Shown: positions 20,691-58,990, counted from the stretch's first letter. The stretch is DNA of 64,000 nucleotides from Pristiophorus japonicus (GCF_044704955.1 NC_091999.1:26784001-26848000), one strand, 5' to 3'. Notes: generated by a model not told the origin, from the sequence alone. Numbers and translations: made by a program.

Positions 20691-21035
20691 GAGCCACAAT
20701 CGTGGAGCCCGTTAATCTCTTTTGGGTGCCGGGCTGCAGGGCCGGTACCACGCTGTCCTGGTGGTTTAGTGGAGACCACCAGAGGCTTGCAACTTCAGTA
20801 GGGATTGCCTGCAGAAAAGCAGACGTTACAGCAATTCTAAAGGGACATGTCAAAATTGTGGTAAACTTGGACATTTGGCCAAAGATTGCTGGAGTTATGA
20901 GGAAGGCGCTGGATGGCGAGATCACAAACAGGCAAAGATGGAAATACCATTAACCAGGGAAGATCTGATGGACATGCTCAGACAGATACCAGCACCACTG
21001 GTACCACTGCCACCACCGCCCCAACCAGAGAACAC
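20691..21035 (+). pseudogene. gag: gag C-terminal remnant with CCHC zinc knuckle
   Basis: 20848-20889 translates CQNCGKLGHLAKDC (CX2CX4HX4C). Confidence 0.85.
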
Positions 21036-24000
21036 CCAATAACCAACTTAGATTTGCCTCTGACCCATAGGACCATCAACATACAAGGAGAGAGTGGGGG
21101 ATATCAGAAAGCAACCCGAAGTGAGATGGTGTTGTCGAAGTACAGGGGTTATGCAACCTGCTCAGTTTTGGTGCCGTCAGAATAGAGAAGGCAACATAAA
21201 GAAGGCATACAGAAGGCAGCGATACATTAAGGGAGATAGGGGTATTGATAGCTCTTCAGCGTAATCGGATAATTTTGGGAGATAAGCAAGAAACCGAATT
21301 AAGTTCGAAAACCCGGGACACCAGCAGCAACGCGTGGTAGGAACAACCATAATCCAACCCGAGTGGGAAACAAAGGGTGTATGGGGTAGCGTGTGCCAAT
21401 TATACCCGACTCTGTGGGCACAATGCAAACAAGATTATGGATTAGCAGAGATATTACCCATCAAAATTCCTGGACCCGAACACAAAGCTCACCGACAGTT
21501 CCAATTAACACCCGAAGCTGAGGTAGCGGTCTGTCAGATAGTGCATGAATTAGAGGAGCAAAGTATATTGAAACATGTAATAGCCTCCATTAATTCACCT
21601 GTGTGGCTGATGAAGAAACCCGACAGGTCTTACCGATTGACTATCGATTATACCACCCTGAATAAGGTGACTTCCGGAGAACACCCAATAGTGGTAAGTC
21701 CAGCCACAATATTTAATGGCCTGGATCCAGATCATAAGATATTCACCATGCTGGTATAGTGAATGGAACTTGGACCATTCCCTTAGCCAAAGAGTCTCAA
21801 GGAAAATTTGTCTTCAAGGTAAATGGATAACAATACACATGGGCGAAGGTACCACTGGGATTCAATAACAGCTGCAGGATATTTCATCGAATATTGTCAG
21901 GGATTTTGGAACCAGTAGACTTAGGAGAAAGAAGGAGCGAAGTAACCAATCTGGGATACATAATATCGTAAGGGAAGAGACAGATGCCCGAGGACAGTAA
22001 GGAAGCAATTCAATCAATCCCCAGACCAGGAACCGTGAAAGGGGTCAGGCAGGTACTTGGGCTATTAAACTACTGCAGAAATGTTATTCCCGAATATGCC
22101 AAGGTGGCCTAACCTATTCAGAAACAGGTCAAAGGGTGGGAACCCTCCTAAGAGCCAGTAAACTGGGGCCTAGATCAAGAAACTGCATGTGTGCGGTTAA
22201 AACAAACTCTCACAAGTGCTCCAACCCTGGGACTACCAGACCAGAATAGGCCCTTTTACGTCTATACCTACCACATTAACCATCATAATAACGCGGTAGT
22301 GATTCAATTACATGGCGACAGGCATAGACCGTGGCATATTACTCAGACAAACCGCAACCTGTAGCTGCAGGACGGTCCAGGAGCGTTGCTGCCCTCGACT
22401 GTGCGGCTTGGGCCATCAGAGTTAACGAAACAATAATAATGTCAGGGTGCATTATTCTACAAACCCAGCGTACCTTAGTAGAATTACTTAACACTGGAAG
22501 GCTAAAAATGTATTCGATGCACAAATGGCGAGGTGGTAAATAATGCTCTCCCCCTCCTCTCCCGCCACCCCCCACCCCGCCCCCCACACCACTCAACGGT
22601 ATGGTAACAATAATAAAAGACGCCTGCAGGGTGGATCATTACAAAGGGAGAGGAGCATCATTATAGCACAACAGAAGATGAGGGAAGTAGTCAGGCTAGT
22701 GAAACCCTGCTTGAGGAGGCAGACTTGGATCTATATGTAGATGAGTTTCGGCGCTATATCAATGGGACACCACAGACAGGATGGGTCGTGGTAGATAGCA
22801 GCTGTCAGGTCAAAGGGGAAGGACGGTTAGAAGAGAATCTATCAGCTCAAGTGGTTGAATTTGTGGTTCTCACTGAGGTTCTGAGGCTTGCGAGGGGAAA
22901 ATGAGTAAATATCTATACAGACAGTCGATATGCTTTCGGAGTAGAGCTTGATTATATGATAGCCTGGAGCAGACGGTGATACACGACCTCAGGAGGAGGA
23001 CCGATTAAACATGAGGAGATTGGGAAACATCTAGTGGAAGCCTCCTTCCTACCCCAGGAGTGTGCGATAATAAAGATCAAAGCACACGTAAAAAATAATG
23101 ATCAGTATGAACAGGGGAATGCATGGACAGATGAAGCAGCAAAGCGAGTGGCAGGTACACTGGCCGGGGAAGCCCAAGGCAGAGCATGTACAATTGGGCC
23201 TGAGGAAGTAAATATTGTGTACAGTTTTGGTCTCCTAACCTGAGGAAGGACATTCTTGCTATTGAGGGAGTGCAGCGAAGTTTCACCAGACTGATTCCCG
23301 GGATGGCGGGACTGACCTATCAAGAAAGACTGGATCAACTGGGCTTGTCTTCACTGGAGTTCAGAAGAATGAGAGGGGACCTCATAGAAACATTTAAAAT
23401 TCTGACGGGGTTAGACAGGTTAGCTGCAGGAAGAATGTTCCCAATGTTGGGGAATTCCAGAACCAGAGGTCACAGTCTAAAGATAAGGGGTAAGCCATTG
23501 AGGACCGAGATGCGGAGGAACTTCTTTACCCAGAGAGTGGTGAACCTGTGGAATTCTCTACCACAGAAAGTTGTTGAGGCCAATTCACTAAATATATTCA
23601 AAAAGGAGTTAGATGAGGTCCTTACTACTAGGGGGATGAAGGGGTATGGCGAGAAAGCAGGAATGGGGTACTAAACTTTAATGTTCAGCCATGAACTCAT
23701 TGAATGGCGGTGCAGGCTAGAAGGGCCGAATGGCCTACTCCTGCACCTATTTTCTATGTTTCTATGTTTCTATATTTCTATGCTTGAGGTACAGGGAGAG
23801 GCCACTCCGCAGGAACAGGAGGGGTGGAAGCAGAGAAGGCCAAACAAGGGACCGACGGGATATGGAGAAAAGATGGGAATGTGGTGGCCCCGGAATGCAT
23901 CCAGGGGAGCCTATTAAATTTATACCACGGGTATGTCCATACAGGTAGAACAAACATGATAAACTTGATGTCCAGATGCTGGTGGTGGAAGGGAATATCT

Positions 24001-24735
24001 AGAGATATAGAGGACCTCTGCAGAAGGTGAGTGATATACGCAAAATACAACCCAGGGGGGAAAGTAAAGGTCAAAATGGGACATCAGCCCCCACCGAAGG
24101 GACTCTGGGAAAATTTGCAGGTAGATTTTACTGGACCTTTATCCAGCAACAAGGGGAAAACATACTGCTTAGATATAATAGACACGTTTATGAAGTGGGT
24201 AGAAGCTGTCGCCACTAGGAATTGTTCAGTAGAAACCATGGCCAGGATCCTAGCAAACAAAATAACGGCACTGCAGCTGAACTCAGATCAAAGTTCAGAC
24301 TTCACAGGGAAGATCATGAAACAGGCGTGCGCTTAGGGATTAGGCAAAAACTATCCCACATCAACGAGACTGGAAAGGGATGGGTTGACAGGATACACCG
24401 AGTATAAATAAAGCTCAAGGCAACCCCTAGTCGAACGATAGGAATGATACCCTTTTAACTAAAATAATATGGAAATCTGTAATGGAACTCTGTAAGCAGT
24501 TACATGATATAGAGGCAAAGATTAGAGATCAGCAAATCAAGGATTTAGAGAACGACACTAAGAAGCAGAAGTTCCAAACACCCCAAATAGGCAGTCAAGA
24601 GATGACCACAGAGAGGTTCGGGATCGCATCCAAATAGATCGGTCTCTATCAGGTAATCATGGTAAGTTATGGTACTTATAAGGAGTATCGGCAAGTGGAA
24701 ACACTGGACCCAGTTAAAAAAGCATGGTCACTAAC
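21036..24735 (+). pseudogene. pol: pro-pol pseudogene, interrupted by CR1 at 23214-23779
   Basis: NSPVWLMKKPDRSYRLTIDY..LN, YTWAKVPLGFNNS, LGLLNYCR, tether AYYS, RNase H LYVD..SAQVVE..NIYTDSRYAFG..KIKAH..GN..D, IN H..H, LQVDFTGPL, IDTFMKWVEA, SDQ. Confidence 0.92.
23214..23779 (+). mobile_element. Young 5'-truncated CR1 inserted between RNase H and integrase of the ERV
   Basis: Open 134-aa CR1 C-terminus (23270-23674) and (CTATGTTT)n tail; pol frame rejoins as GPEEVN|MLEVQGEATPQ. Confidence 0.95.
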
Positions 24736-24770
24736 TAACCAGTGACGACCGGAAAATATTGCTTTTTGCA

Positions 24771-26890
24771 GGACTCGAGAGCTCGTGGAAATAACGTGGA
24801 GTAATGCAGCCTCATATCAGTGACAACAGACTGAGGGATGGCAAGGCCTGTATTACAGGGACTTGGGCGACATTAGTTTAATAAAACATCAAAAACACTG
24901 ATGGTGTCGGACGGAGCAACAGTAGAGTTAAATAACGGGCATAAAACAACGTTACAAGGAAACGAAACAACATTGGGGATGAGCCAATAATATAGAACCA
25001 TAATTAATGGGAATAAGACCGCGGTGTGTTTTTAATCAGGAAAGACAAACATACTGCACCAGGGGAAGGGGGTGCAGATTTCACTCAACATCTATGAATG
25101 GTGGTGGAGTGATATCTCCAGAGATAGACCCACCAACACGGCCCCATCCACTAGTTTAGCAACAGTGAGCACTACCAGGGCCTCGACCATCACACCCCCA
25201 GCGCCACAAACCTGTCCAACTGTGAACACTGGGGCAAAAGAGAAATTGATAAGGCAGACCAAGGGTAAGATACACTTCAGGGTACGTCAGCGAATAATTA
25301 CTGTATTCCTAAATTTAAACAATAAAACTACCCCAACATCTGCGGGTTAAACAGTATAAGCCTGTATAGAAACATGATCCTTCGAGCACTTAAAGGCGCT
25401 GAATCCAAAACCATGAAGTTTAATGTGGAAAGAGAGTCAGGTAAAAAAAAACGGGACAGGGGAAAAAGAGGGATACTCGAAATGGTACGAGGCAGGATAC
25501 ACGGCAGGATACGTGGCAGGATACACTGCAGAATACACGGCGGAATACGTGTATGTGGCGGGAGTTGCGAAACTATAGACCTACACACGATAGATGATTG
25601 AGTTAACGCCTTCGCATGAACCTGACTGGGATTGCTGGAAAGCGATAAGGATAATGAAAAGATACAGGCACAGCTGGGTAATGGCGCATAAAGCGAATTA
25701 TTACAGTGGCCCACACATTGCGAGACCACACCAGAACTCTAAATGAATAAAGCATAACGCAACTTAAGTAAAACCATACAGACAGAACAAGTACGTGCAG
25801 GATATGGAGCATGGTTGCTCACTGGAATACAACATAACAGAGAGTAGCTTCAGAAGAGAAAGGTGTCGGATTGGATAACACTCGATATATTTACAAACTG
25901 GACCTTAGACAAAAACATGACTCATGCCTGCGAGGTGCAGAGAAACAGTCATGCTTGGGTTTCAAAGGCCAGCTGTGTTACCGGACATTTAAATAGATTT
26001 TTTATTATCTCTACCACAGTATTATGTGACAACAGGAGATCCTTCATACCAAACAATGTAGGAGAAATAAGGATTCAAACTCGCGTGTGGTGTGATGACA
26101 AACCAGAAATGTAACTGAGGAGAACAACAGTCCTAAGAGTCTCAGCATATGTAGATTGTTATAAAAATAACCAAGTTGCTTTATGTCGAGATCCACTACG
26201 AATGATCAAAGATGACTGTGGATATAACCAATTGGACGGGTGCACCTTGAGCATCACCCCCACTAACACAGGACTACAAAATTATCGCTGTTTCACGAGG
26301 ATATGGAGATTGATGTGTGACCACCACGGCAACTGAAATGAAGAAAGGAACACCTCATGCACCATTATGGATATTGACTTCTGCTTTACTCCACTTGATG
26401 AGACAGATATAAATGGGTTTATTATAACCCCTGAGCTAAAGGAGGAATGATCGATGGGACAATGATGGACATTGCCTGAGGAGGTTTTGCGAAGACCAGC
26501 GGGCCACAAGGAAAACCAATACTCGAATTGAAAGAGAAACAAACTCGACTGAATTGGACACCATTCGACAACATAGAGGGTACTCCAGGCGGGGCAGAAA
26601 TTCGGCAGAACAGTGAAGACCCCAAGTGGAGGGAAGATAGATGAAACAGCAGATACTCCAGGCGCGGCATAATTCGAACACCGAGAAAATGTTGGCTACA
26701 AAGGACTTATACATGAACTAAGCTAGACTCAATGTACTGGTTGTAGTGCAAGGGTGCTCACCTTGCTAGTATTATCCTTTAAAAAGCTGTAACCGACGTA
26801 AGAGGCAAGCCCTAGCCCGTACTATAGTTAAAACATTGAAGAAAGGGAAATCAGACAGTCCGGCAGAAAGGACATACATAGTATAACCTT
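24771..26890 (+). pseudogene. env: env pseudogene, F-protein-like class I fusogen
   Basis: Splice acceptor TTGCTTTTTGCAG ending 24770; Thr-rich stretch; furin site RGKR at 25458 then GILEMV/AGY; amphipathic helix HTLRDHTRTLNE; C-x8-C-x10-C-x7-C at 26157-26240; hydrophobic segment ~26730-26780 then basic tail. Confidence 0.75.
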
Positions 26891-32409: not shown

Positions 32410-32720
32410 TGACCCGGCACCCACACATCACATCCACCGATTCACTCACTCCCTGTCACAACACCCAAACACCCCATCCACTGGTACATTCAGTCCAGAC
32501 CCAACACCCACACGTCCCATCCATTGGTACATTCAGTCCTTGTCCCGATACCCACACGTCCCATATATTGGTTCTTTCAATACCTGTGCCAAACACCACA
32601 CGTCCCATCCACTGGTGTAATCAGTCGTGACCCAAACAGCACACGTCCCATCCGATGATTTCATCAGTCCTGACCCAAACACCACAAGTCCCATTGGTTG
32701 GTTAACTTAATCCTGACTCA
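32410..32720. repeat. ~42-bp intronic minisatellite (CACCACACGTCCCATCCACTGGTACATTCAGTCC...)
   Basis: CACGTCCCAT core repeated; shorter version at 49410-49640. Confidence 0.75.
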
Positions 32721-34619
32721 TTTCACACATAATTCTTTGAGACAGCTGTTCATGCTCTCAATCTGAAATATAAATTCCCTGTTTTTCTCTTTCTTGCAGT
32801 GAACTTAGTGACAATAATGATCCTGTCTCGAGGAAGGTGCGGTCTCTCCAAGTGTGTCAGCCGTTACCAGGTGGCAATGGCAGCGGCAGATCTACTGGTC
32901 GTTATCCTGGAACTAATATCCAGGCAGATTCCTATTCATTACTCAACCGTGTTTGAGTTCATGTGGAACATTAAAGTGTGTAATATCCATGCTATCCTGC
33001 TTTACGCAGTCACAGACTGTTTCATCTGGTTCACAGTTGCTTTTACCTTTGACCGATGTATAGCCATTTGTTGTCAGAAGCTCAAAACCAAATATTGCAC
33101 CGAGAAAACGGCGACTGTGGTTGTGGGAACAGTGAGTGCGCTGTTCTGTGTAAAGAACACTTTCTGGTACTTTATGTATGGAGGTATGTATCAGATTTCC
33201 AATAGTCCCTGGTTTTGTTTTGTTCGATGGGAAGTCTCTGATTCAGTATCATGGGCAGTAATTGAATTTCTTCATTATATTATAACACCGTTTATTCCAT
33301 TTGTTCTGATCCTTCTGCTCAATACTTTAACTGTCAGACACGTTTTAGTGTCGATGCAGAGCCCGCAGGAGACTCAGGGCCCACAGCAGTGGGGAGAGTC
33401 CCAGTGACCCAGAGATGGAGAAGCGAAGGAAATCCATAATTTTACTGTTTGTTATATCCGGCAATTTTATCCTGTTATGGGCAGTGTTTCTGTTATATTC
33501 TGCGGTTGAACGATTGCATTCGTTAAACGTTATTCGTGCATCTCTACCTCAATATGTACAGGAAATGGGATTTATGCTTCAGCTCCTGAGTTGCTGCACC
33601 AACACATGTATTTATGCCGTGACCCAGACGAAATTCAGAGAGGAGTTGAAGAATGTGGTGAAATATCCCTTTACTGTAATTGTTAAATGCATTAAATAAT
33701 AAGAATCACACAATGTTTTGGACGTGTATTCTGCCCAATCTGCTCATCTCTGTGATACACACACAGTGAGGCCTGTTTATATCTTTCACCGCACGGATTC
33801 AGCGACTAACAAAAATGATAGAGGTGGGGAAGTCCACGGAGATCAGTCCCGCTGGACTCCTGCAGGTTTTATCCCCGCTAAGACATCTGCTGCGGCCTGG
33901 GATGGGTTTATAAAGCTCCCGACCGCCAGGCTCGTGCCGGATGTGTTTACCCAAAGGGAGCGGCACGGGGAAGATGGCTCTGTTACTTTTCAGTCCACGG
34001 GCGGAAGGGCCGCTCAGTCCCCAGCACTCCCAGGGAAAGCTGGGGGGAAATGGCCTGGGACCAAACAACAGCCAGAGAGGGAAGGTTTCAAAGGCTCAAA
34101 GGTCAGTGCTTTCATCCCTTTGCAGGCTCCTTGTGTTATCCTCCCAGTGGGGTTTAACCTGAGCAGCCCCAGCGCCTGGTGATAGCGACGTATCCTTGTT
34201 TCAGATAATCTACCTTTGGGATTAAAGGGTGTCCTGCAGACGGAATATATCCCAGTGACATTCACCACTATAACGTTCCTTTGTAAGTTTGCCTGAACAA
34301 TGCGGTGATCTGCAGGATGAAGTGTTCCCCGCACACACTCGACACACATTAAACTCAGCTCCTCCTCACTCTCTCAATAATCTCCGTGCTAAACATAGCC
34401 CATAATATGCAGCATTCAGGGAGGGTCGTAACGAGCTTTGTTACTAGGTATTGCAGTATGTGTGATGTAATGAAGCGGGGAAACTCGCATGACACTGTGC
34501 CTCAGTATTGTGACATCACAGACCTGCACTTTTGACCATGCCCTGGCCTGTGGCTGACTCAGAATCGCATTTCAGACATCCCATCTCCTTCACCCATCAC
34601 TTTACAAAGAGTTACTTAA

Positions 34620-36405
34620 TGTCTGCAACAAAGAAATAGGCCATTCGGTGCTCGCGGCTGCAAACTGGTCTGAGGCGGTTCCCCTGAGGTTTTCCTGGGG
34701 GTGCTGGGAGTTAGCAGCCCGTCTGCCTGTGGACTGCAAATTTACAGAGCGACCTTCCCCACCCCGACCCTTTCGGCCCAGCAGAGCATGTCAGAGCTTA
34801 CTCGATCACCACATTCTGATCATAAACGGAGTGCACAAAGAGAGTGGTAAACTTGGGAACGAAGAGAAAGTGAGATTCAGTGGTAAGTCCGTGGTGAGTC
34901 TGGCTGAGTATTAGCTGTAAGAAGGGAAATTTAGATTAACGTTTTGAATTGAACTTAGAACTTTAAAAACAGAAGTTAGCAGAAACTGCCTGTTAGTGGT
35001 AGTTAACTATCAGTCAGCTGTAAGTGTTAGTCTTAAATATGTGCTAATTACTGCGAGCAATGGGCATGGAGCTGAGACAGCACTTGAAACTTGTGTGTGG
35101 CTCCAAAGGTATAAAACTAAACACTAACTGTTGATTCACAGTGTGTTCTGCACAGTGATATTAAACGGAATTTGGTGAGAGTTTGAATGGGAACAGTGGT
35201 TGAAGGAGGTGTTGCTTTGGCCTCCAAAATACAGCAGGTAGATGAATGTTTGGTGAGTATTACCTTTTTTCTCGAAGCTTGGTCCACACTAAGACCTGGG
35301 AGCAATAACAATACTTTATTAAATTAATAATTTAACCATAATTACTAATTAATTAATATAATTATAAATAACCATTGAATAAAAACTAAGTAATTAAATT
35401 AATTCAGTGTGTAAATAAGCAAATACATTTATAAAAAATAACTAAAGATGGCAGGGTAGGCAATGAGTCGAGACTATAATGTGTGTGAATTTTTGCACAT
35501 CAAATCTGTCCCACATTCCCACATCTGCAGGAAATGTCTTTGCTTTATTCGCTCTGGCTCAGGGTAATTCGGCTGGAGTGCGAGTTCGACACACTCTGAA
35601 ACACACAGGATAACTGATTTAATCCAGAAAACAGTCACATCCCACAGAAAAGCGCAGGTTCCGGAAAGTCTGTGGCTGATTGGGTGCCGTGTAGCGAACT
35701 GAGGAGAGGCTGAGAATGAGACACTGCTCCTGTCCAACAGGCACGATATACTCGTTACCTTTAACGATAAGGATAAAGATTGCGTGGAGGACATCCAGAT
35801 TACATACCAAAGTACGTGGCTCAGAAGGTTGTCTACAGGCAGAGATAGGTAGAAATATTAAACAATTACTTTGCATCAGTATTTATCAGGGAGACAAAAA
35901 GGTGGACATGACATCGGATGATATTAGAAATGAAATAACTGCATTTAAAATAACAAGAGGAAAATATTATTTAAACTAATCAAACCGAAAATGGTTAAAT
36001 GCCAGCTTCGGACGAATCACATCTAGGGAAGAGATAGCAGAGGCATTAATAAACATATTTAATACTTCGTTAGAATAAGGTGCAGTGCCGGAGGATTGGC
36101 AGACACCTAATGTAATAACTATTTTTAAGAAGGGAGGTGGAACGTGTCTGAGGAACTATAGTCCAGTCAACTTAACGTTGTTGGGAGGAAAAATAATGGA
36201 TTCCCTACTAAAAGAAAAAGGGGAAGAGCAACTAGAAACCAAAAATGAATAGTCAGCATGGATTATAAAAGGGAAAGTCTTGAATTGACCAAATTCTTTG
36301 AATTTTTCGAACAGGTAACAGATAGCGTAAACTAACGTAATGTAGTAGGTGTAATTTATCTGGATATCCAAAGGCCTTCGATAAGATACCCCATAATCGA
36401 CTGAA
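34620..36405 (+). mobile_element. Old internally deleted CR1 (5' UTR, ORF1 N-terminus, RT remnant)
   Basis: ATGGCAGGG start at ~35448 with decayed Cys motifs; VPEDW, NYSPVNLT, QHG, AFDKIPHNRL; copy at ~51510-53295. Confidence 0.7.
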
Positions 36406-36451
36406 AGGGCAGATCACAAATCATAATTACAATTAATAATAATAATTGGGA

Positions 36452-36936
36452 TGTTTTGAAATGGAGTTAACAGATTTTTAAAATGGATCCCACAGCCTGT
36501 TTTTCAGTCTGTGGGAAGCATGTGTGGGATGCCTTCCACAGAGGGGCAGATGTTCCAATTCATAGACCAAAGGCCTTGGGAGCTGGGCACAGACACAGAT
36601 AACATAGAATTTGAATTCTACAACAAGATACAAGTCAAATAAAAAGAATCATAACAACATGTATATTGAAATAACCATTTAAACATATAGGGGCCAGATT
36701 GGAGGAAGCAACCTACCAGATAATCATGTATTAATCAATCAGCACATATTAATTGTAACTTGTGTAATTACGTAATGCTATAATCTGAAACTGTATAAAA
36801 TAAGATATCTCTGGCAGTTTCTCTGAGCATTCATTCAAGGATACCTCCCCTGCCAGCTTGTATCTTTTATTATGAAAAACTGCATTTACTTTAAGGCTAA
36901 CGGACTCCGAGTGGTGGTTTGAAGTTAACCCTAACA
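36452..36936 (+). repeat. 5' LTR of ERV family B
   Basis: TGTT...AACA termini, TATAAAA at ~36794, AATAAA intact in paralog (53761), followed 3 nt later by a PBS. Confidence 0.7.
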
Positions 36937-36939
36937 AAT

Positions 36940-36957
36940 TGGCGCAGTCAGCAGGAT
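36940..36957 (+). promoter_or_regulatory. Primer-binding site complementary to tRNA-Ser 3' end
   Basis: TGGCGCAGTCAGCAGGAT versus the tRNA-Ser complement TGGCGTAGTCGGCAGGAT (recalled; 2 mismatches). Confidence 0.8.
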
Positions 36958-39900
36958 CTACTGGACGGGCAGATTAGACACAAAAAGCTGACCAAACTAA
37001 CAACGAATGAGGAGAGAATTACCTTGATAAATTCTCCTTGCAAAGTAACCAGAGATGCAACGAATCTGAAGCAGAGTCTGTGCAGCCAGTAAATCCAGTT
37101 GAGCGGTGCGTCAGGACACTGTAAGTAAATACATGTGTCGGGAGAATAAGTACTGTACGGGATATTGGGCTAAAAGCCTCGGTGTAAATAGTTCCGCTTT
37201 AGTAAAGGTGGGTAAAATGGGAACTGGGGAAAAAGCCCCAGTGTAAGAAATGGCAACGGAATCTGCCAAGGCCCTTGGAGGGCTGAGGTATAAACTACCA
37301 GAAGAGTTTCTGAGAGATAAATCTGAAAAGGTTAAGAAGATGGTTAAGGCTGGATATGATGAAGGGAAAAAGAGCAGTTTAACAGCCGGAAAGATGAATA
37401 GAAATATACCCGAAGTTGAGATGGACAGAGAAAGTGACAAAAGACAAGAGGCGGTAAGTATAAAAATAGATATAGTTGACAAAAGGGAATGGACAGAGGA
37501 ATTTGGCCCAAATTTGTATCCCCCACTAACAGGGTTATGATTAGGAGCCGAAGAAAATAAAGGATTTATTGGGGGCCAGAAGTATTGCTAAGCAGATATT
37601 TTTCGGAAGACCATAATAAAAACTGTTAGTGACTATCTTAAGTGAAATATGGATCCAAAATTAGAGCCGGCCAAACAATAAGCTTTGTTGAATGAAGAGA
37701 GACTTTTGTGAATGTCTGTCTTTGAATGAAAGTGCTTCTGTGATTGTTGACTGCGGAATATTTGAGGTGGGAATTAATGAATTTTTCAAGTGTCTGAAAG
37801 CCTACTTCAGAAAGTGGTGGAGCTGTCTGTTGTTTTGGCCCCACCTACTTTTTCAAACAGAGTGAACGTTTTTTTTAACCCTTTACAGTGTTGTCCTGTT
37901 TGAGGGAAGTTTTAAGAAACTATGAACCTAGAATTGAATTACATCTTCATTTAGAAATCCAGGTGTGGATTTATTCGGATGATATGTTATGGAGTTAGGA
38001 AATGCACAAAGGATAGGTTTGTTGAGCAAAAGATAACAAATGCGAGGTCCCGTTGGTTTAAATTGTTTTTTTCGACACGCTCACTTGTCAAAAGAAAACA
38101 CGTATGCATTGATTACATTTTGTTGAAAGAAAATACATTTAGTCTAGGAATGAAATAAAGAACGATGAAGGGAAATTGTAATGCCTTAAAAAAAGAAGCC
38201 TGCGTGGGTGTCTCAAGGCTGTGGGCTTGGGAAATACGCCCCCATATTCCTTTGTGTAAAATCTTGATGCGAAAGCTTCTAGCTCTGTAAAAAGATTTTT
38301 AAATAAAAGATTGGCAATACAATATTTGAATTGGGACTTTGAGATATTTCAGGTGATTCTCCTTGACAAACATTTTGGTTGTATTGGAAAATATTGTGTT
38401 TGGAAGCCTTTTAATAAAAGTAAACATACTGTGTCAGAAGCTGAAGCTTAAAAAGATTACATTTATGAGATACTGTATCACAAAATTGAAGTTGCAGCGC
38501 AAAAGATTAGAGTTTTTGACGTTCAGCTTCTAAAACAGAGGATAGGCACATATTTATAAAACAAGTACTTTGCATTCTGTGATCTGTGACTCACTATAAG
38601 CATAAATGAGAAGTCCGATTAAAAAACAGTTTTACCATACTTGACATTTCATAATCCAACAAGAAATACAAATACAACAAAAGGGGAGCAGAAATTAGGA
38701 TGGAAGAAGTGAACAGTTAATTTTGTTGTGAAGATTTCAAGTACCACTGTTTAAGAAAATACACAACATAAAAACTTAAATCTGATCTCTTAAAAAAAAA
38801 GAAATAAAACTATAATGTTTCGAAACAATGTAGAAATGCCTTCAGGGATCAGGGCAAATCCTGGGCAAGTGGGGAGCTACCTGTGAAAGTTAAAACGGCA
38901 GGCTTTAGCAGTTTAGAACAAAGGAAAATATAAGTTGAACTTGTGACTTCAGATACGGTGGTTGAAGAACCACAGAAAATGAGTCGTAAAGGCTTTGAAA
39001 CTGGAACAATTGAGATAACGGAAAGCAGTTATCAAAGTCTATGTGTTAGACTCTGTTCTAGTTATGATAAAGACATTTGAGATAACGGAAAGCAGGATTT
39101 AAAGTAAATCCCAAAAAGGCACAAATCGGACAAGCTGTGGTACAGTACCTGGGACATAAAATATCGCAAGGAACTCGGACCATGTCCAATGACAGGAAGG
39201 AGGACATTAGGATTATGCCCCGACCAAAACCAGCCTGAGGGGGGTGTAAGATATTGGGGTTCTTTTGTTTTTGCAGGAATTTTGTACCTAACCACAGCAA
39301 TTGCAGAACCAATACAGTGGCTAGTGAAAGGAAAATCCGGTTGAAATGGAAATGGTAAGACTCTAACTAAAACCTGGAATATCCAGGATGTGTTTTATCA
39401 ACAGAATATAAACGTGATCATCACCGTCCTTCCGATTCTACAAGGACAAGCTGCAAGGCCGCCCCAAGGGGGCCCAGAAGCATTTTACCACACCAGAGGC
39501 TACGTAAAGCAGCCTCTAGGGGGCGGCATCTAAGTGTCAGGAGCGTTTGTCTTGAAGCCATAAGATAAGTGTGTAAAAAAGGTTACCTGAATATTGTAAA
39601 CCAGGGGAATTAACCTTGGGAAATTGCGTGGTAGTTAAACCTGGAACAGAAGTAATGTTGTTATTTGACAATGGCCAGCATGAAATGTGACCTGTGAGCA
39701 TAAATTGAACAGCCAGAAAAAAGTAGCCACAAGACGAAAGCTTTGTAAACATGATTGCTAGACACAATGCTGAGAATAGCTAGTGACACATCAGGAGCAA
39801 GGGAGTAACACAAGAAGCTGAGACACAAAGAAGGAAGACAGAGGAGATCTATAGCAAATGACGTATTAGCTGTACAGGGACATCTCTAGTAGATACACCA

Positions 39901-40266
39901 GATATACAGGCGATCCAGGCAGGTGTAGATAGTTTGAGGGGAACAACGGAGTTACTAATCAGGAATCAGACCAGGATTGGGATACAGTCTTCACAGTTAG
40001 GATACAAAACTTCCAAAAAAATGCTACAGGGTGTATCCGTATTAGAAGGCCATGCACGAACAATTAACGAGCTAAATAAGCAGGAATTGAGAGGACGATG
40101 CTGAGGACAGGAAAAGAGACACATGTCATGCCTATGGGAGATGGATGATTGGTCAGGTGAGACACAATATGGATCAGATACAAACCGGGCGAGTTACAGA
40201 TTCAATAAATAGCACCCAGTTGAAAGTAATGGCACAACACACTGGGCCATTAGATGCATGTACCCT

Positions 40267-43200
40267 GAAACATAGAAACATAGAAACATAGAAAAAGGTT
40301 GCAGGAATAGACCATTCGCCCCTTCGAGCCTGCACCAACATTCAATAAGATCATGGCTGATCATTCACCTCAGTACCACTTTCCTGCTTTCGCTACACAA
40401 ACGTTGATCCCATTAACTTAAGGGCCATATCCAACTCCCTCTTGAATATATCTGATGAACTGACATCAACAACGTTCTGCGGAAGAGAATTCCACAGGTT
40501 AACAACTCTCAAAGTGAAGAAGTTTCTCCTCATCTCGGTCCTAAATGGCTTTTCCCTTGTCCTCAGACTGTGACCACTGGTTCTGGACTTCCCCAACATC
40601 GGGAACATTCTTCGTGCATCTAACCTGCCCAGTCCCATCAGAATGTTTTTGAGGTCCCCTCTCATTCTTCTAAACTCCAGTGAATACAGGCCCAGTCGAT
40701 ACTATCTCTCCTCATAAGTCAGTCCTGCCATACCGGAAATCAGTCTGGTGAACCTTTGCTGCACTCCTTCAATAGCATGAACGTCCTTCCTCAGATTAGA
40801 ACAAAACTGAACACAGTATTCCAGGTGAGGCCTCACCAAGGCCTAGTACAGCTGCTATATTCAAATCCCCAAGATATGGGGCCAACATGCTCTTTGCCTT
40901 CTTTCTGTCTGCTGCACCTGCATGCCAACCATCAATGACTGATGTACCATGACACCCGGATCTCGTTGCACCTCCCCTTTTCCTCATCTGCCGCCATTCA
41001 AATAATATTCTGCCTTCCTGTTTCTGCCACCAAAGTGCATAACCTCACATTTATCCACATTACACTACATCTGCCATGCAATTGCCCACTCACCAAACCT
41101 GTCCAAATCAACCTGCAGCCTCTTAGCATTCTCCTCACATTTCACACCGCCATCCAGCATAATGTCATCTGCAAACCTGGAGATATTATACAAAATTCCT
41201 TCATCTAAATCATTGATGTATATTGTAAATTGCTGGCGTCCCAGCACTGAGCCCTGCAGCACCCCACTAGTCACTGCCTGCCATTATAAAAATAACCCGT
41301 TTATTCCGACTCTCTGCTTCCTGTCTGCCAGCCAGTTCCCTATCCACGTCAATACATTATCCCCAATACCATGTGCTTTAATTTTGCTCACCAACCTCTT
41401 GTGTGGGACCTTGTCAAAAGCATTTTGAAAGTCCCACTACATCATATCCACTGGTTCTCCCTTGTCGACTCTGCTTGTTACATCCTCACAAAATTCTAGA
41501 AGATTTGTCAAGCTTGATTTTCCTTTCATAAATCCACGCTGACTTGGACCAATCCTGTCACTGCTTTATAAATGGGCTGCTATTTCATCTTTAAAAATTA
41601 ATTACAACATTTTCCCCACCACTGATGTCAGGCTAACCGGTCTATAATTCTCCGTTTTCTCTCTCCCTCCTTTTTCAAAATGTGGTGTTAAATTCGCTAC
41701 CCTCCAGTCCATACAAACTGATCGAGAATCGATGGACTGTTGGAAAATAATCACCAATGCATCCACTATTTCTAGGGCCACTTCCTTAGTACTCTGGGAT
41801 GCAGACCATCAGGCCCCGGGGATTTATCGGCCTTTAGTCCCATCAATTTCCCTAACACAATTTCCCACAAATAAGGATTTTCTTCAGTTCCTCCTTCTCG
41901 CTAGCCCCTCGGTCACGTATCATTTCCAGAAGATTATGCGCATCTTCCTTCGTGAAGGCAGAACCAAAGTATTTATTCAACTGGTCTACCATTTCTTTGT
42001 TCCCTATTCACCTGAATCTTACTGCAAGGGACCTACGTTTGCCTTCACTACTCTTTTTCTCCTCACATATTTATAGAAGTGTTTATGTTTCCAGCAAGTT
42101 TCCTCTCATACTCTATTTTCCCCCTCCGAATTAAACCCTTTGTCCTCCTCTGCTGAATTCTAAATATCTCCGCGTCCTCGGGTTGATGCTTTTTCTGACC
42201 AATTTATAAGTCTCTTCCTTGGATTTAACGCTATCCTTAATTTCCCTTGTTAGCCACGGTTGAGCCACCTTCCCCGTTTTATTTTTACTCCAGACAGGGA
42301 TGTACAATTGTTGAAGTTCATCCATGTGATCTTTATATATTTTCCATTGCCTATCTGCCGTCAACCCTTTATGTATCATTTCCCAGTCTATTCTAGCAAA
42401 TTCATGTCTCATACCATCGAATTTACCTTTCCTTAAGTTGAGGACCCCAGTCTCAGAATTAACCGTTTCACTCTCCACCTTAACAAAGAATTCTACCTTA
42501 TTGTGGTTACTCTTCCCCAAGGGGCCTCGCACAACAAGATTGCTAATTAGTCCTTTCTCATTACACATCAAGCAGTCTAGGATGGCCAGCCGTCTAGATG
42601 GTCCCTCGACATATTGGTCGAGAAAATCATCCCTAATACACTCCAGCAAATCCTCCTCCACCGTATTGTGACCAGTTTGGTTAGCCCAATCTATATGTAA
42701 ATTAAAGTCGCCCATGATAACTGATGTACCTTTATTGCACACATCCCTACTTCCTTGTTGGATGCTGTCAGCAAACTCACTACGATTGTTTGGTGGTACA
42801 CAACTCCCACTAGCGTTTTTGTCCCTTTGATATTCCACAGATCCACCCACGTAGAATCCACGCAAATGTCCTTCCTGACTATTGTGTTAATTTCCTCTTC
42901 AACCAGAAATGCCACCCTACCTCCTTTTCCTTTGTGTCTATCCTTCCTGACTGGTGAATATCCCTGGATGTTGCGTTCGCAGTCTTCGTCACCCTTGAGC
43001 CATTTCTCCGTGATGCCAATTACATCATATTCATTAATTGCTGCCTGTGCAGTTAATTTGTCCACCTTATTACGAATACTCCTCGCATTGAGGCACAGTG
43101 CCTTCAGGCTTGTTATCTTAACACACCTTGTCCCTTTAGAATTTTGCTGCAATGTGGCCCTTTTTGATTTTTGCCTTGGATTTCTCTGCCCTCCACCCTT

Positions 43201-43500
43201 ACTATTTTACCCCAAAGGTTCCCATCCCGCTGCCATATCAGTTTAACCCCTCCCCAACAACACGAGCAAACTCTCCCTCGTGGACATTGGTTCTGCTGAG
43301 GTTTGCACAGGTCCCAGCTCCCCCAGAACGGTTCCAATGTCCCAAGAAATTGAATCCCTCCCTTCTGCAACACACATTCATCTGAACTATCCTGCGCTTC
43401 CTACTCTGAAAAGTGGTAGCTATCCCTGAGATTGCTACCTTTGAGGTCCGATTTGGTAATTTAGCTCCCAGCTCCCTAATTTCAGCTTATAATTCCTCAG
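40267..43500 (-). mobile_element. Long CR1 (ORF1 3' part, EN, RT, tail), inactive
   Basis: (GAAACATA)n at left end; LCLNARSIRNK, MGDFN, QGSVLG, FADD on the minus strand. Confidence 0.95.
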
Positions 43501-43682
43501 ACACAGGGAGTCAGACTCAAACACATGAAGAGCACTCTAAAGACAGAGAGTGAGAGGCACAGATACATTGCACAATCCCATTTCTTTGAATGTTACAAAG
43601 TTATCGACAAATGCAGATTCAACAGAATAGATTCGGGTATAACTGAGCAAGATGGGAGGAAATCGGTTTGAATTTAAAGATG

Positions 43683-43754
43683 TACCAGGAGAGGGGTTCG
43701 AACCCACGCACGTATAAACCCATCGGAATGCCTTAACAACTCGGCCATCCTGGT
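43683..43754 (-). pseudogene. tRNA-Leu(TAA)-derived pseudogene lacking the anticodon loop
   Basis: Reverse complement ACCAGGATGGCCGAGTTGTTAAGGC...GCGTGGGTTCGAACCCCTCTCCTGGTA; about 11 nt of anticodon arm missing. Confidence 0.85.
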
Positions 43755-43849
43755 TTTGTCAATATTCGGATTTTGTCTCTGTGAGAATCTGGGCTGCAGC
43801 TCCACTCTCACAGACACAGGTTTTCAATGAGCATGTTCGAATATTTATA

Positions 43850-44100
43850 GTAATATTGACACAGGGGCAACTCTCCTGTTCTTTTTTGAGTAATGCACTG
43901 GGAACTTTCACATCCACCCGAGGGTGCAGACGGAGCTTCAATTTAACATTTTATCCCAAAGTCAACAGCTTCAACAATGCAAAATTCCCCAAATACTGCA
44001 TTTGAGTGTCAGCCAAGATTATATGCTCAAGTCGCAGGAGTGGGACTTGCACACACAACCTCCTTATTCAGTCGAGGATGCTGCCACTGAACCAAAGCCG
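43850..44100 (-). mobile_element. DeuSINE 5' half upstream of tRNA-Leu (also at 47030-47285, 59338-59590, 62855-63105)
   Basis: Homologous to 1930-2190. Confidence 0.7.
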
Positions 44101-44193
44101 ATACCAAAGTTCACATCCGTATTATTTTCCCCAAGTCTTTTTATAAAGTATCAGGACATACAGAAGTAATATTCAACATTTTAAAAATGCTTC

Positions 44194-44264
44194 ATCCTGG
44201 TCGGGGAATTGAACGCCAAAACGTGCGTGACAGAGCGGGATATTAACTAAGACACGAATGAGGA
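44194..44264 (-). pseudogene. tRNA-Asp(GTC) pseudogene
   Basis: Reverse complement TCCTCATT...TATCCCGCTCTGTCACGC...GTTCAATTCCCCGAC; stems disrupted. Confidence 0.75.
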
Positions 44265-44734
44265 GCTGAAGGGTGTGGATTCTGTCAGTGCAGGAATCGA
44301 GCTCAGAACAGAAATGGACACCATGAGAAGTAGACAGGCACATTGAGAGACAGAGATAAACCGACAAACAGGGAGAGACAGACAGCGAGTTCGAGACAAC
44401 GTGAGACAGAAAGTGTGAGACTGAGAAGGAGAGGCAGACTGCGTGAGAAAAAGACTCAAACTTATACATATACAGATAGAAAGAGAGAGAGGGAAACAGT
44501 GAGAGAAAGACAGTGATAAAGACAGTAACAAGGAGAGAGACAGATGAAGAGTGAGCGACAGATAGAGAGATATACAGAGATATAAACAGAAAAAGATGGA
44601 AATACTCAGCAGGTTAGAGACAGGAACTAACAGAGACAGGCAAAGAGAGACAGACAGGTAGAGACATAGACAGACGGAGATGATGGGAATGAGAGAGACA
44701 GTCAGACAGATAGACTGAGAGAATCCCACTGGAA

Positions 44735-46419
44735 CCTTCCTAGGGGACTGTGGGTCTCGTGAGAATGAGGAACTGAAAGATATCCTTATTGGCGGGAAAT
44801 TGTGTTTGGGAAATTGATGGGATTAAAGGCCGATAAATCCCCGGGTCCTGATAGTCTGCATCCCAGAGTACTTAAGGAAGTGGCCCTAGAAATAGTGGAT
44901 GCATTGGTGATCATTTTCCAACAATCTATCGACTCTGGGTCAGTTCGTATGGACTGGAGGGTAGCTAATGTGATGGCACTTTTTGAAAAAAGGAGGGAGA
45001 GAGAAAGCGCGTAATTCTAGACCGGTTAGCCTGACATCAGTCGTGGGGAAAATATTGGAATCAATCATTAAGGATGAAATAGCAGCCCATTTGGAAAGCA
45101 GTGACAGTATCGGACCGAGTCAGCATGGATTTATGAAAGTGAAATCACGCTTGACGAATATTCTGGAATTTTTTGAGGATGTAACGAGTAGAGTTGACAA
45201 GGGAGAAACAGTGGATGTGGTGTATTTGGACTTTCAATAGGCTTTTGACAAGGTCCCGCACTAGTGATTGGTGCACAAAATCAAAGTGCATGTTATTGGG
45301 ATTAATGTACTGACATGGACAGAGAACTGGTTGGCAGACAGAAAGCAGAGAATCTGGATAAACGGGTCCTTTTCAGACTGGCAGTAAGTGACTAGTGGGG
45401 TGTCGCAGGGCTCAGTGCTGGGACTCCAGCTCTTTACAATATACAAGAACAATTTAGTTGAAGGAATAGAGTGTAATATCTCCAAGTTTGCGGATGACAC
45501 GAAACTGGGTGGCGGTACGAGCTGTGAGGAGGACGCTAAGAGGCTGCAGGGTGAATTGGACAGATTAGGTGAGTGGGCAAATACATGGCAGATGCAGTAT
45601 AATGTGGATAAATGTGAGGTTATCAATTTTGGGGGCAAAAACACGAAGGCAGAATATTATCAGAATGGCGGAACACTAGAAAAAGTTGAGGTGCAATGAG
45701 ACCTTGGTGTTATGGTTCATCAGTCACTGAAAGTGGGCATGCAGGTACAGCAGGTGGTAAAGAAGGCAAATGGTATGTTGGCCTTCATAACTAGGGGATT
45801 TGAATATAGGAGCCAGGAGATCTTACTGCAGTTGTACAAGGCCTTAGTGAGGACACACCTGGAATATTGTGTTCAGTTTTGGTTTCCTAGTCTGAGGAAG
45901 GACGTTCTTGCTGTTGAGGGAGTGCAGCGAAGGTTCACCAGACTGATTCCAGGGATGGCAGGACTGTCATATGAGGAGAGATTGGATCAACTAGGCCTTT
46001 AATCACTGGCGTTTAGAATGATGAGAGGGGATCTCATAGAATCATATAAGATTCTGACGGGACTGCACAGGTTAGATTCGGGAAGAATGTTCTCGATGTT
46101 GGGGAAGCCAGAACCAGGTGACATAGTCTTAGGATAAGGGGTAGGCCATTTAGCAGTGAGATGAGGAGAAACTTTTTCACTTAGAGATTGTTGACCTGTG
46201 GAATTCCCTGCCACAGAGAGTTGTTGAAGCCAGTTCATTGGATATATTCAAGAGGGAGTTAGATATGGTGCTTACGGTTAAGTGGATGAAGTGGTATGGA
46301 GAGAAAAACAGGAAAGGGTATCTGAAGGAATGATCAGCCATGATCATATTCAATGGCGGTGCAGGCTCGAAGGGCCTAATGACCTACTCCTGCAGTTATT
46401 TTCTATGTTTCTATGTTTC
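44735..46419 (+). mobile_element. 5'-truncated CR1 (RT and 3' UTR) within GA-rich repeat
   Basis: ORFs 44802-46002 carry RT motifs; CTATGTTT tail. Confidence 0.95.
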
Positions 46420-46837: not shown

Positions 46838-46919
46838 TTCTAGGATTGGGGTTCGAATCCACGTGGGAAAAACCCATTGAATTTAAAGGCCAACGCCGTA
46901 ACCACTCGCCCATCCTGGT
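46838..46919 (-). pseudogene. tRNA-Leu-derived pseudogene, full length, anticodon mutated to TTA
   Basis: Reverse complement ACCAGGATGGGCGAGTGGTTACGGCGTTGGC-CTTTAAA-TTCAA...GGATTCGAACCCC; stem mismatches. Confidence 0.8.
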
Positions 46920-49310: not shown

Positions 49311-49718
49311 TGCTGAGGTATTGCTTCCTCTGACTTGGATATGGCGTTATATTAGAGTCTCATTCAGCGCTTTACCCGCCCGGCAAAAGTCCAATCCATT
49401 AATTATTTCGGTCATGACCCAGCACCCTCACATAAGATCCACCGCTTCACTCACTCCCTGTCACAACACCCAAACATCCCTTCCACTGGTACATTCAGTT
49501 CCTGTCCCACCATCCGCACGTCCCATACATTGATTCTTTCTGTACCTGTGCCAAACAGCACACGTCCCATCCGATGATTTCTTCAGTCCTTACCCACACA
49601 CCACAAGGCCCATTGGCTGGTTCATTTAATCCTGACACATTTCACACGTAATTGTTTGAGACAGCTGTTATTGCTCTCAATCTGAAATATAAATTCCCTG
49701 TTTTTCTCTTCCCTGCAG

Positions 49719-50606: not shown

Positions 50607-53342
50607 TAAGAATCACACAATATGTTGGGCGGGTGTTCTGCCCAATCCGCTCATCTCTGTGATACACACACAGTGAGGCCTGTTTTCATCATTCACCGCC
50701 CGGATTCAGCGACTAACAAAAGTGATAGAGGTGGGGAAGTCCACGGGTATCAGTACAGCTGGGCCCCTGCAGGTTTTAAGCCCGCTAAGACCTCTGGTGA
50801 GGCCTGGGACAGGTTTATAAAGCTCCCGACCGCCAGGCTCGGGTCTGATGTGGATACCCAAAGTCGTGGGGAATGTGTCTCTGTTACTGTACCGTCCACG
50901 GGCGGAAGGGCCGCTCAGTCCCAGCACTCCCAGGGAAACCACGGGAGAAATGGCCTGGGACCAAACAACAGCCAGGGAGGGAGGCTTTGAAAGGCTCAAA
51001 GGTCAGTGCTTTCAGCCTTTTACAGGCTCCTTGTGTTTTTATCCCAGTGGGGTTTAACCTGAGCAGCCCCAGCGCCTGCTGATAGCGACGAATCCTTCTT
51101 TCAGATAATCTACCTTTGGGATTAAAGGGTCTCCTGCAGACGGAGTATGTCCCAGTGACATTCACCACTGTAACGTTCCTTTGTAAATCTGCCTGAACAA
51201 TGCAGTGATCTGCAGGATGAAGTGATCCTCGCAAATTGAACTCAGCTCCTCCTCACTCTCTGTAAATTCTCCTTGCTAAACATAGCCCATAATATACAAT
51301 GTTCAAAGAGGGTGGAAACGAGTTTGTTGCTAGGTATTGCTGTACCTGTGAAGCAATACAGCGGTGAAACCCCCATGACACTGTGCCTGAGCATTGTGAC
51401 ATCACAGACCTGCCCTTCTGACCAAGCCCTGGTCTGTGGTTGACCCACAATCGCATTTCAGACATCCCTTCTCCTTCACCCATCACCTTACATAGAGTTA
51501 CTTAACGTCTGCAACATAGAAAGAGGTAATTTGGTGGCCACGGCTGCACGTTGGTCTGAGCCTGTTTCTTGTGGTTTCCCTGGGGGCTCGTGGAGTCAGC
51601 AGCCCGACTGCCTGTAGACTGCAAATTTATAGAGCGACCTTCCCCACCCCGTCCCCTTTCGGCCCAGCACACCATGCCAGAGTTTACTCCATCACCACAT
51701 CCTTTTCTTAAACGGAGGGCACAAAGAGAGTGTTAAACTTGGGAATGGGGAGCGAGTGGGATTCAATGGTAAGTCCTGGGTGAGTCTGGCTGAGTATTAG
51801 CTGTAAGAAGGGAAATTTAGTTTAACGTTTTGAATTGAACTTAGAACTTTAACTAATGTAGTTAGCAGAAACTGCCTGTTAGTGGTAGTTAAATATCAGT
51901 CAGCTGTAAGTGTGAGTCTTCAATATGTGCTAATTACTGCGAGCAATGGGCATGGAGCTGAGACAACTTGTGTGTGGGTCCAAAGGTAAGAATAAACACG
52001 AACTGCTGATGCACAGTGTGTTCAGCACAGTGATATTAAACGGAATTTGGAGAGAATTGGAATGGGAACAGTGGTGGAAGGAGGTGCTGCTTTGGTCTCC
52101 AAAATACAGCAGGTAGATGAATGTTTGGTGAGTATTGCCTTTTTCACGAAGCTTGGTCTAAACTAAGACCTGGGAGCAATAACAACACTTAATTAAATTA
52201 ATAATTTAACTATATAACCTAATTAATTAATAGAATTATAAATAACCGTTTGAATAAAAACTAACTATTTAAATTAATTCAGTGTGTAAATAAGCAAATA
52301 TATTTTTAAAAAATAACTAAAGATTGCAGGGTAGGAAATGAGTCAAGACTGCAGTGTGTGAGAGTTTGTGGACAGCAAATCTGTCCCGCATTTCCACATC
52401 TGAAGGAAATGTCTCTGCTTTATTCTCTCTGGCTCAGGGTAATTGGGCTGGAGCGCGAGTTCGACACATTCTGAAACACACAGGAGAAGTGATTTCTGGA
52501 TAGTTTAATCCAGAAAACAGTCACACACCACAGAAAAGCGCAGGTTCAGGAAAGTCCGTGGCTGGTTGGGTGCCATGTAGCGAGAACTGAGGAGAGGCTG
52601 AGAATGAGACACTGCTCCTATCCAACAGGTAAGATATACTCGTTACCTTTAACGAGAAGGATACAGATTGAGTGGAGGACAGCCACAATACATACCAAGG
52701 TACGTGGCTCAGAAGGTTGTCCACAGGCAGAGATAGGTAGAAATATTAAACAATTACTTTGCATCAGTATTTATCAGGGAGACAAAAAGGTGGACATGAC
52801 ATCGGATGATATTAGAAATGAAATAACTGCGTTTAATAAGAACAAAAGGAAAATATTATTTAAACTAATCAAACCGAAAAAGGATAAAATGCTTGCTTCG
52901 GACGAATTACATCTTGGGAAGAGATAGCAGAGGCATTAATAAACATATTTAATATTTCGTTAGAATAAGGTGCAGTGCCGGAGGATTGGCAGATACCTAA
53001 TGTAATACCTATTTTTAAGAAGGGAGATGGAACGTGTCTGAGGAACTATAGCCCAGTCAACTTAACTTCGTTCGTAGGAAAAATAATGGAATCCCTACTA
53101 AAGGAGAAAGTTAAAGAGCAACTAGAAACCAAAAATGAATAGTCAGCATGGATTATAAAAGGGAAAGTCTTGAATTGACCAAATTCTTAGAATTTTTCGA
53201 AGAAGTAACAGATAGCGTAAACTAACGGAATGTAGTAAATGTAATTTATCTAGATTTTCCAAAGGCCTTCGATAAGATACCCCATAATCGACTGAAAGGG
53301 CAGATCACAAATCGTAATTACAATTAATAATAATAATTGGGA

Positions 53343-58700: not shown

Positions 58701-58990
58701 CGCTGCCATATCAGGTTAACCCCTCCCCAACAACACGAGCAAATTCTCCCTCGTGGACATTGGTTCTGCTGAGGTGCAGACTGTCCGGTTTGCACAGGTC
58801 CCAGCTCCGCCAGAACAGTTCCAATGTCCCAAGAAATTGAATCCCTCCCTACTGCAACACACATTCATCTGAACTATCCTGCGATTTCTACTCTGAAAAG
58901 TGGTAGCTATCCCTGAGATTGCTACCTTTGAGGTCCGATTTGTTAATTTAGCTCCCAGCTCCCTTAATTCAGCTTCTAATTCCTCAGACA
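55747..58990 (-). mobile_element. Long CR1, paralog of 40267-43500
   Basis: Same junctions and motifs. Confidence 0.95.

Follow-up and report, generated by a model that had tools for sequence, protein, structure and literature searches.

A 64,000-nucleotide stretch of contig C23 in the 5.9-Gb genome of the shark Pristiophorus japonicus (NC_091999.1:26784001-26848000; the whole stretch is called the window below) contains the remnant of an endogenous retrovirus (ERV) belonging to a family designated here family B. The window copy is a dead, twice-deleted, non-autonomous element. Family B as a whole is probably a non-autonomous ERV that joins a retroviral Pol to an F-type envelope protein (Env) and likely spread as a helper-dependent satellite, the window copy being multiplied later by segmental duplication. 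Two further families of the same genome serve for comparison: family A, a provirus remnant at 20700..26800 on the plus strand of the window with zinc knuckle, reverse transcriptase (RT), tether, RNase H, integrase and env, and family C, which is young and autonomous (L033-L046). A first-pass annotation, made from the window sequence alone, had described the element as a second, "loki-like" family with an F-like env homologous to that of family A.

A dispersed, defective family and its stuffer

All parts of the window copy lie on the plus strand. The first-pass annotation recognized the element correctly but began its 5' long terminal repeat (LTR) at 36452; the paired LTRs of dispersed copies place the start at 36402 and the terminal CA at 36936. 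This 535-bp LTR (TG...CA) is 76-89% identical to the paired LTRs of the dispersed copy L053/L054 and to the LTR of L063. It matches nothing around family A; that the two families have different LTRs, as had been proposed, is probable. The primer-binding site (PBS) for tRNA-Ser(AGA) follows at 36940..36957 (TGGCGCAGTCAGCAGGAT). A probable gag 5' remnant with stops (37217..37590) has no Pfam match and resembles the N-terminus of family C Gag only marginally (z 2.9, 3/300 shuffles). The gag start claimed earlier survives as this marginal match, and the sequence beyond it (37591..39088) is neither gag nor pol; it is an AT-rich, non-coding stuffer, X, standing in place of the remaining gag, protease and most of RT. 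The RT thumb remnant at 39089..39331 is real, with 58% identity to residues 367-437 of the intact family C Pol. It meets env at a deletion junction specific to the window copy (39331..39334), where L053, L055, L063 and L071 contain about 1 kb more, namely the tether and the integrase end. The env remnant (39334..40270) is the 5' half of the gene, with several stops and frameshifts; it includes a surface subunit (SU)/F2-like part, an RQRR cleavage site (39836-39847), a fusion peptide, the first heptad repeat (HR1) and a helix with the motif YGxW-x6-HN. It is truncated at about 40270 by the insertion of a repeat of the long interspersed nuclear element (LINE) type (40271..41973, minus strand), identified by self-BLAST to other copies in the window and by downstream translation. 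We take this repeat to be of CR1/L2 type. Neither a 3' env nor a 3' LTR follows it in the window copy.

DNA searches with the B LTR and env found nothing beyond the C23 duplication described below and unplaced contigs. The dispersed copies came to light only with a degenerate env motif; this matches the genome 377 times, and of the first 100 matches listed, 74 are on contigs C1-C21. Ten dispersed copies were fetched, all on the plus strand, with an env segment 79-92% identical to that of the window copy. None of the ten has an intact gag or pol, and all are internally deleted. The typical layout (L053, L055, L063, L071) is LTR, PBS, gag start, X, RT thumb and tether, integrase end, env, LTR, compared with which the window copy has lost a further 1 kb and its 3' half. 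The family retains the tether, while RNase H is lost. Its internal region is flanked by at least two unrelated LTR types, one in the window copy, L053 and L063 and the other in L055, L057, L069 and L071; the LTR of L059 is more distant still from both. Distances within LTR pairs are 0.052-0.089 in family B (five pairs) against 0-0.025 in family C (six pairs). The B values correspond to 12-20 million years at a mammalian rate and to tenfold greater ages at the shark rate assumed by Han (2015, PMC4422223), and therefore no more than the relative order can be relied on, B being the older of the two families.

The features expected of a satellite, that is, dispersed copies, one common internal deletion, paired LTRs and a PBS, are thus all present in family B. 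No autonomous parent of the family was found, which weighs against this reading, and we infer a helper. The element appears to have kept its cis-acting LTR, PBS and leader, plus env, and its RNA would have been packaged and reverse-transcribed with Gag and Pol supplied by a relative that is autonomous and primed by tRNA-Ser. LTRs, env and X may have been exchanged between families when reverse transcription switched templates in co-packaged RNAs.

The earlier assignment of the PBS to tRNA-Ser is borne out. The family B PBS matches the 3' ends of host tRNA-Ser at 16 of 18 positions in eight of the 11 genes checked (the common ones), and at 17 of 18 in three minor variants that were chosen deliberately; ARAGORN reads ten of the 11 as Ser(AGA). 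Several family C copies match at 18 of 18, and the tRNA-Ser primer is shared by B and C. Family C has an LTR of about 675 bp and frames for Gag (about 470 aa, with a CCHC knuckle), Pol (about 1180 aa, after an in-frame TGA) and Env (about 750 aa), Pol being ordered protease, RT, tether, RNase H, integrase. Its env gave 66 scored matches with open frames of 528-765 aa from 23,975 first-look candidates. The first-pass annotation had made its reading depend on env being present in full-length, PBS-bearing relatives. An env frame of 737-765 aa was found in all five gag-pol-bearing family C loci, which had been chosen by env.

In the mouse, ETn (which depends on MusD) and VL30 are LTR elements whose coding region has been replaced by non-coding sequence and which need an autonomous helper. 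The shark satellites differ from them in keeping env, which is intact in the younger C-type members, and in having one stuffer common to three env lineages and several LTR types.

This stuffer, about 1.5 kb long in the window copy, substitutes gag and most of RT in eight of ten B loci, and a ninth retains a 56-bp trace. It was also found in four of ten loci fetched for a C-type env, those four being without pol. Eight further loci, chosen by a 35-nt X motif, all have X; three of them carry an A-type env, four a C-type env and C LTRs, and one a pol piece. X pieces taken from defective elements of the A, B and C env types are 65-88% identical. The motif has 2,721 genome matches at two mismatches or fewer, against none for the control. 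X is unmatched in 99 other loci, which include six gag-pol-bearing C stretches, snakehead retrovirus (SnRV), lokiretroviruses and teleost relatives, and it is absent from the fetched autonomous copies. The sharing of X among defective families is the new part of the finding, and any function of X is putative.

No support was obtained for reading X as a gene, as an RNA of an Rfam family or as a structure under covariation. All six frames of its 5' 850 bp are interrupted by stops in the seven copies that were translated; X has no Rfam match; and covariation was seen at one of 82 predicted pairs (covariation term +3.3). Neither an open reading frame (ORF) nor a known origin was found, and X may be a neutral passenger, a point that, with the covariation result, tells against a functional part for it. 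On the passenger explanation, one early deletion or insertion made a defective backbone, which later captured env genes and LTRs. The many indels in X agree with this, and so does the piece of C-type env 5' sequence that precedes the A-type env in three of three A-env X elements, as a single env-swapping backbone would have it. However, X has kept its level of identity in families with Env proteins 23-43% identical to one another and with unalignable LTRs, and the gag and pol pieces around it have been lost in differing ways. This explanation has somewhat less than an even chance, and a role in cis for X, weighed directly against neutral carriage, is about evenly balanced with it. If X does act in cis, its persistence would most likely reflect aid to packaging, export or genome length; as a sequence common to several defective retroviruses, X is a candidate cis-acting RNA module.

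Several observations concern individual X elements. The A-type env of L164, L165 and L168 is preceded by a short C-type env 5' piece, and these appear to be env-swap recombinants. A further defective family, represented by L049:2240-5600 (minus strand), combines X and a tRNA-Ser PBS with pieces of pol that share about 60% identity with C; 40 scored matches to it lie across many contigs at 95-100% identity. A 35-bp piece of the B LTR adjoins the start of X in both L049 and L164. At L049:6933-7081, the LTR of a defective element holds a 149-bp piece of its own env. The C-type X elements share the C LTR.

Relationships of the enzymes

Family B is not a lokiretrovirus, and its enzymes group with those of ordinary retroviruses. 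The first-pass label "loki-like" is contradicted by the RT and integrase trees, by topology tests, by RNase H and by the xPQG motif of RT. In an RT tree of 35 rows, families A, B and C and three shark proteins form one clade (98/98) that is sister to teleost elements (98/97) and lies inside Retroviridae, while loki, a group characterized by an RT clade sister to all other retroviruses, falls outside (98/97); the RT is also outside the gamma/epsilon and foamy clades. Family B rows in the trees are short (22-35% of columns), and the RT thumb of the window copy groups with other B copies within the shark clade. Approximately unbiased (AU) tests, based on a fast LG+G4 tree (26 rows, two loki references), reject a shark+loki grouping (p=0.0045, with B placed on thumb pieces only) and an exclusive shark+SnRV clade (p=0.019). 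The loki references L131 and L132 were recognized by their RT motif, a PF00523 match and likeness to the Loki-Str Env, and the SnRV reference (P0029/L073) by identity with a sequence, both comparisons being with the supplement of Wang and Han (2021, PMC7947760).

Single domains agree with the trees. The RT motif is TRVPQG in the B copy L057 and TRLPQG in family C, against PFG in every loki RT compared wherever the site is ungapped. The family C RNase H is 45% identical to that of murine leukaemia virus (MLV), 41% to SnRV, 25% to loki and 24% to foamy virus, and both identity and tree separate it from the group I RNase H, grouping with foamy virus, that characterizes lokiretroviruses. The integrase tree parts shark from loki at 97. 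Three points weigh on the other side. By BLAST the integrase, which in lokiretroviruses is closest to CGIN1, is 44% identical to loki and 37% to MLV, at odds with the tree; family B can be placed on its thumb, its tether, one broken RT (L057) and integrase pieces only; and the deep RT branches are poorly resolved, with foamy virus inside the tree and with no ERV-L or ERV-S reference. Because of this last point, "class III/Huo grade" is no more than the nearest name for the group.

Lokiretroviruses (Wang and Han, 2021, PMC7947760) share with the shark elements an F-like Env with an RxKR site and about 300 homologous columns, and the dual RNase H; they differ in RT, RNase H, integrase and PBS, and their Env is without YGxW-x6-HN. 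A reading of family B as a lokiretrovirus, extending that group to cartilaginous fishes, can draw on the homologous Env with its RxKR or RxRR site, on the integrase identity and on the pairing of a tether with RNase H that A and C both have, a feature common to all retroviruses. It is nevertheless very improbable, given the position of RT inside Retroviridae, the rejected shark+loki grouping, xPQG in place of PFG, the MLV-type RNase H and the integrase split. In addition, the six chondrichthyan genomes looked up in Table S2 of PMC7947760 are unstarred there, which is read as loki-free. The Latimeria and frog "NYNRIN-like" proteins were also considered as lokiretroviruses and rejected by RT motifs and tree position.

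A tRNA-Ser PBS and an F-type env are common in errantiviruses (PMC13524379), and an env-bearing Ty3/gypsy errantivirus was considered on that account. The probability of this origin is negligible: the RT is not of Metaviridae type but lies inside Retroviridae, away from the gypsy outgroup; A and C have a tether and a second RNase H in place of a single one; and PMC13524379 reports that intact vertebrate errantivirus homologues were not found.

By RT identity the best named virus is SnRV (43%), ahead of MLV (40%), loki (37.5%) and foamy virus (36%), yet it is not the sister in the tree. The SnRV-related ERVs, or clade Huo (Han, 2015, PMC4422223; Xu et al., 2018, PMC6001957), share with the shark elements the motifs LPQG and LQYVDD, an MLV-type RNase H, a single CCHC knuckle, a common reading frame for gag and pol that is interrupted by one stop, and chondrichthyan hosts; this comparison was made without the CmiERV lineage I sequences. 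SnRV differs in its PBS and in its Env, which has 1134 aa and no significant match, against the loki-related Env of about 750 aa here. Closer in the RT tree are the teleost ERVs (P0011, P0015, L088-L091), with 47-55% RT identity to C and an in-frame gag-stop-pol; they differ in that the readable env, that of L090, encodes a conventional TLV_coat Env. An epsilon/gamma placement, suggested by a 405-bit MLV match, was rejected, as the signal comes from RNase H and RT alone is near-equidistant.

The envelope

The family B Env is homologous to the loki Env and to the F proteins of paramyxoviruses and pneumoviruses. The motifs RQRRSI, EGHARTINE and AYGRW...VTDSI stand in the window env where the first-pass annotation read them (39836, 40045 and 40130), as do their family A counterparts (25458, 25721 and 25800). 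It had further claimed that the two env proteins align while the DNA looks unalike. The DNA indeed has no similarity (best E 0.76). For the proteins, direct comparison is significant for the YGxW piece (0/2000 shuffles reach the score), weak for the HARTINE piece (8/2000), marginal for the HR1 piece (26/2000) and not significant for the cleavage-site piece (1314/2000). Compared with the intact family C Env, three of five single-frame pieces of the window env are reached by 0/500 shuffles and the cleavage piece by 7/500, while the most 5' piece is not significant. Judged by these sequence comparisons, the homology of A and B env is secure by way of intact relatives. The longer search motif proposed earlier fails, missing an intact A env, P0002, P0003, P0005, P0006 and the two loki Envs. 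Shortened to YGxW-x6-HN, the motif is specific to the shark A/B/C clade.

Protein-database searches with a short B env piece and an A-type env piece found nothing, whereas a full HMMER scan found six named homologues, all from sharks or a skate; a seventh match, to a Calx-beta protein, is spurious. The env tree has four clades, one each for A and B, one uniting C with proteins of Mustelus and Chiloscyllium, and one of skate type. A, B and C are supported at 97-100 (B at 100), and the earlier count of at least two distinct lineages rises to at least three. The fourth clade comprises P0005 and P0006 (skate and shark proteins). The second of these, P0006, bears a Niban-like annotation, has an env piece fused at its N-terminus and is possibly a gene-model artefact.

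The intact C env encodes a signal peptide, an RxKR site, a fusion peptide and a transmembrane segment. Among 257 ORFs, a profile built from shark env alone matches the two loki Envs (E 4e-8 and 1.4e-7), and the remaining 255 give no match at E<=1; aligned by hhalign, shark and loki Env agree over 306 columns (probability 89%, E 2.3e-6). A profile that includes two loki rows has a paramyxovirus F0 as its best sequence match in the PDB (E 0.003), and one A-type env matches PF00523 at E 1.7e-6, below the curated cut-off. A stricter first look with PF00523 across the genome gave one sub-threshold match. A PF00523-like Env with an RXKR site, as in lokiretroviruses, is therefore present, for B only through homology to the A and C envs and with RQRR as its site. 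A low-confidence structural model of an A-type env finds only F proteins of respiratory syncytial virus (RSV) and human metapneumovirus (HMPV) among the PDB folds listed. In BFVD it matches F-like viral glycoproteins and the Env of walleye dermal sarcoma virus (WDSV) and walleye epidermal hyperplasia virus 1 (WEHV-1), with foamy Env matched more weakly.

The link to F is weakened by several of these results taken together. The profile of the loki pair barely finds shark envs (best E 0.005), and the window B env goes undetected. The PF00523 match is made by one of the 11 members of alignment A2 and by none of four further A-type envs or four B-type pieces. The profile that found F0 was itself built with two loki rows, as was the alignment behind the A-type model, and neither the intact C env alone nor alignment A2 found an F match in the PDB. 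That model is of low confidence (predicted local distance difference test, pLDDT, 46; TM-score about 0.22), and the first env structure prediction reached a pLDDT of 31.

Class I fusogens are cleaved by furin and drive fusion through HR1 and HR2. From homology, the family B Env is predicted to have been furin-cleaved and to have fused membranes in this way, as a class I F-like trimer.

The combination of a retroviral Pol with an F-type Env, a mosaic of the two, is well supported. The Env of the teleost sister element L090 is TLV_coat (E 1e-20), of gamma type, and L091 has the same 579-aa frame; env was therefore replaced on one of the two sister branches. At least one replacement between the shark and teleost sister groups has taken place, and its direction is open. 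Envelopes have hence been exchanged between deep aquatic lineages, and an F-type Env is no marker of loki, since a loki-related Env accompanies a Pol inside Retroviridae and a gamma-type Env its teleost sister.

These results bear on a competing explanation, in which family B is an ordinary SnRV-like ERV (clade Huo, class III) and an F-type Env is ancestral or common in aquatic retroviruses, with no exchange. The RT identity to SnRV, the shared in-frame gag-stop-pol with a single CCHC knuckle, and the SnRV-related ERVs known from the elephant shark, a chondrichthyan (PMC4422223), all fit it. So do the matches of the low-confidence env model to WDSV, WEHV-1 and, weakly, foamy Env, the last of which is F-related according to PMC11468914. 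Opposed to it are the rejection of a shark+SnRV clade, the teleost TLV_coat Env with the replacement it requires, and the SnRV Env, which matches neither the shark profile (E 0.15, a single weak stretch) nor PF00523 significantly. The explanation is plausible without being the favoured one; it bears on direction and naming and can stand alongside the satellite model. On the shark profile, a close homology of the SnRV Env is unsupported. Within the SnRV env (L073:6131-9532), the best, non-significant match falls on the helix of the shark YGxW-x6-HN motif. An F-type Env may be wider among fish retroviruses.

A bolder account gives the exchange a direction: the shark lineage took up a loki/paramyxovirus-type F Env where its teleost sister has one of gamma type, and X is a functional non-coding RNA module that recombines among defective elements with env, of three env lineages, and has reached thousands of copies. 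This is a tentative proposal and rather unlikely to be right as a whole. The way in which loki and other retroviruses gained their Env is a question unanswered by Wang and Han (2021, PMC7947760), and the literature consulted, partly in full text and with subscription journals outside its scope, held no account of an F-type Env on a shark class III Pol; the stuffer was not targeted in that search. The history of env is traceable here, as a single genome contains three env lineages along with a young family whose LTRs are nearly identical.

Segmental duplication on contig C23

A search with the family B LTR gave 40 scored matches, 36 on C23 and four on small contigs. A 22-mer of the LTR has 181 matches, and the 100 listed are all exact and all on C23. 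Both flanks are common to ten of ten fetched loci of the C23 type, and five more diverged loci share them likewise, at 88%. The C23 copies are a single insertion, amplified by segmental duplication together with a tRNA-Leu-bearing unit on a tRNA-array chromosome. Their number is an artefact of duplication and would mislead estimates of copy number or activity.

In the window, the duplicated unit containing the element spans 32489..44735 and is repeated at 49407-60213. The second copy of the insertion lies at 53290..55750 on the plus strand, its start being approximate, with its PBS at 53829-53846 and most of the sequence corresponding to 38043-39567 gone. Degenerate tRNA-Leu(TAA) copies occur in the duplicated unit at 43683-43754, 46842-46919, 59170-59241 and 62663-62740, and ARAGORN calls a tRNA-Leu(TAA) gene in four diverged copies of the unit elsewhere. 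Because the gene is called in these diverged copies, the window ERV likely hitch-hiked on a tRNA-gene duplication.

Short matches to the non-env C-terminal part of P0003 at 32832-32918 and 49754-49837 probably belong to another repeat. Elsewhere on C23 (L019, L022), tRNA-Asp and tRNA-Ser genes form long tandem arrays with a unit of about 1.95 kb, and the tRNA-Ser pattern has 1,080 matches genome-wide. Three near-identical copies, at C23:26680195, 26820452 and 26960706, are spaced about 140,255 bp apart, a spacing that marks a higher-order tandem repeat containing the window.

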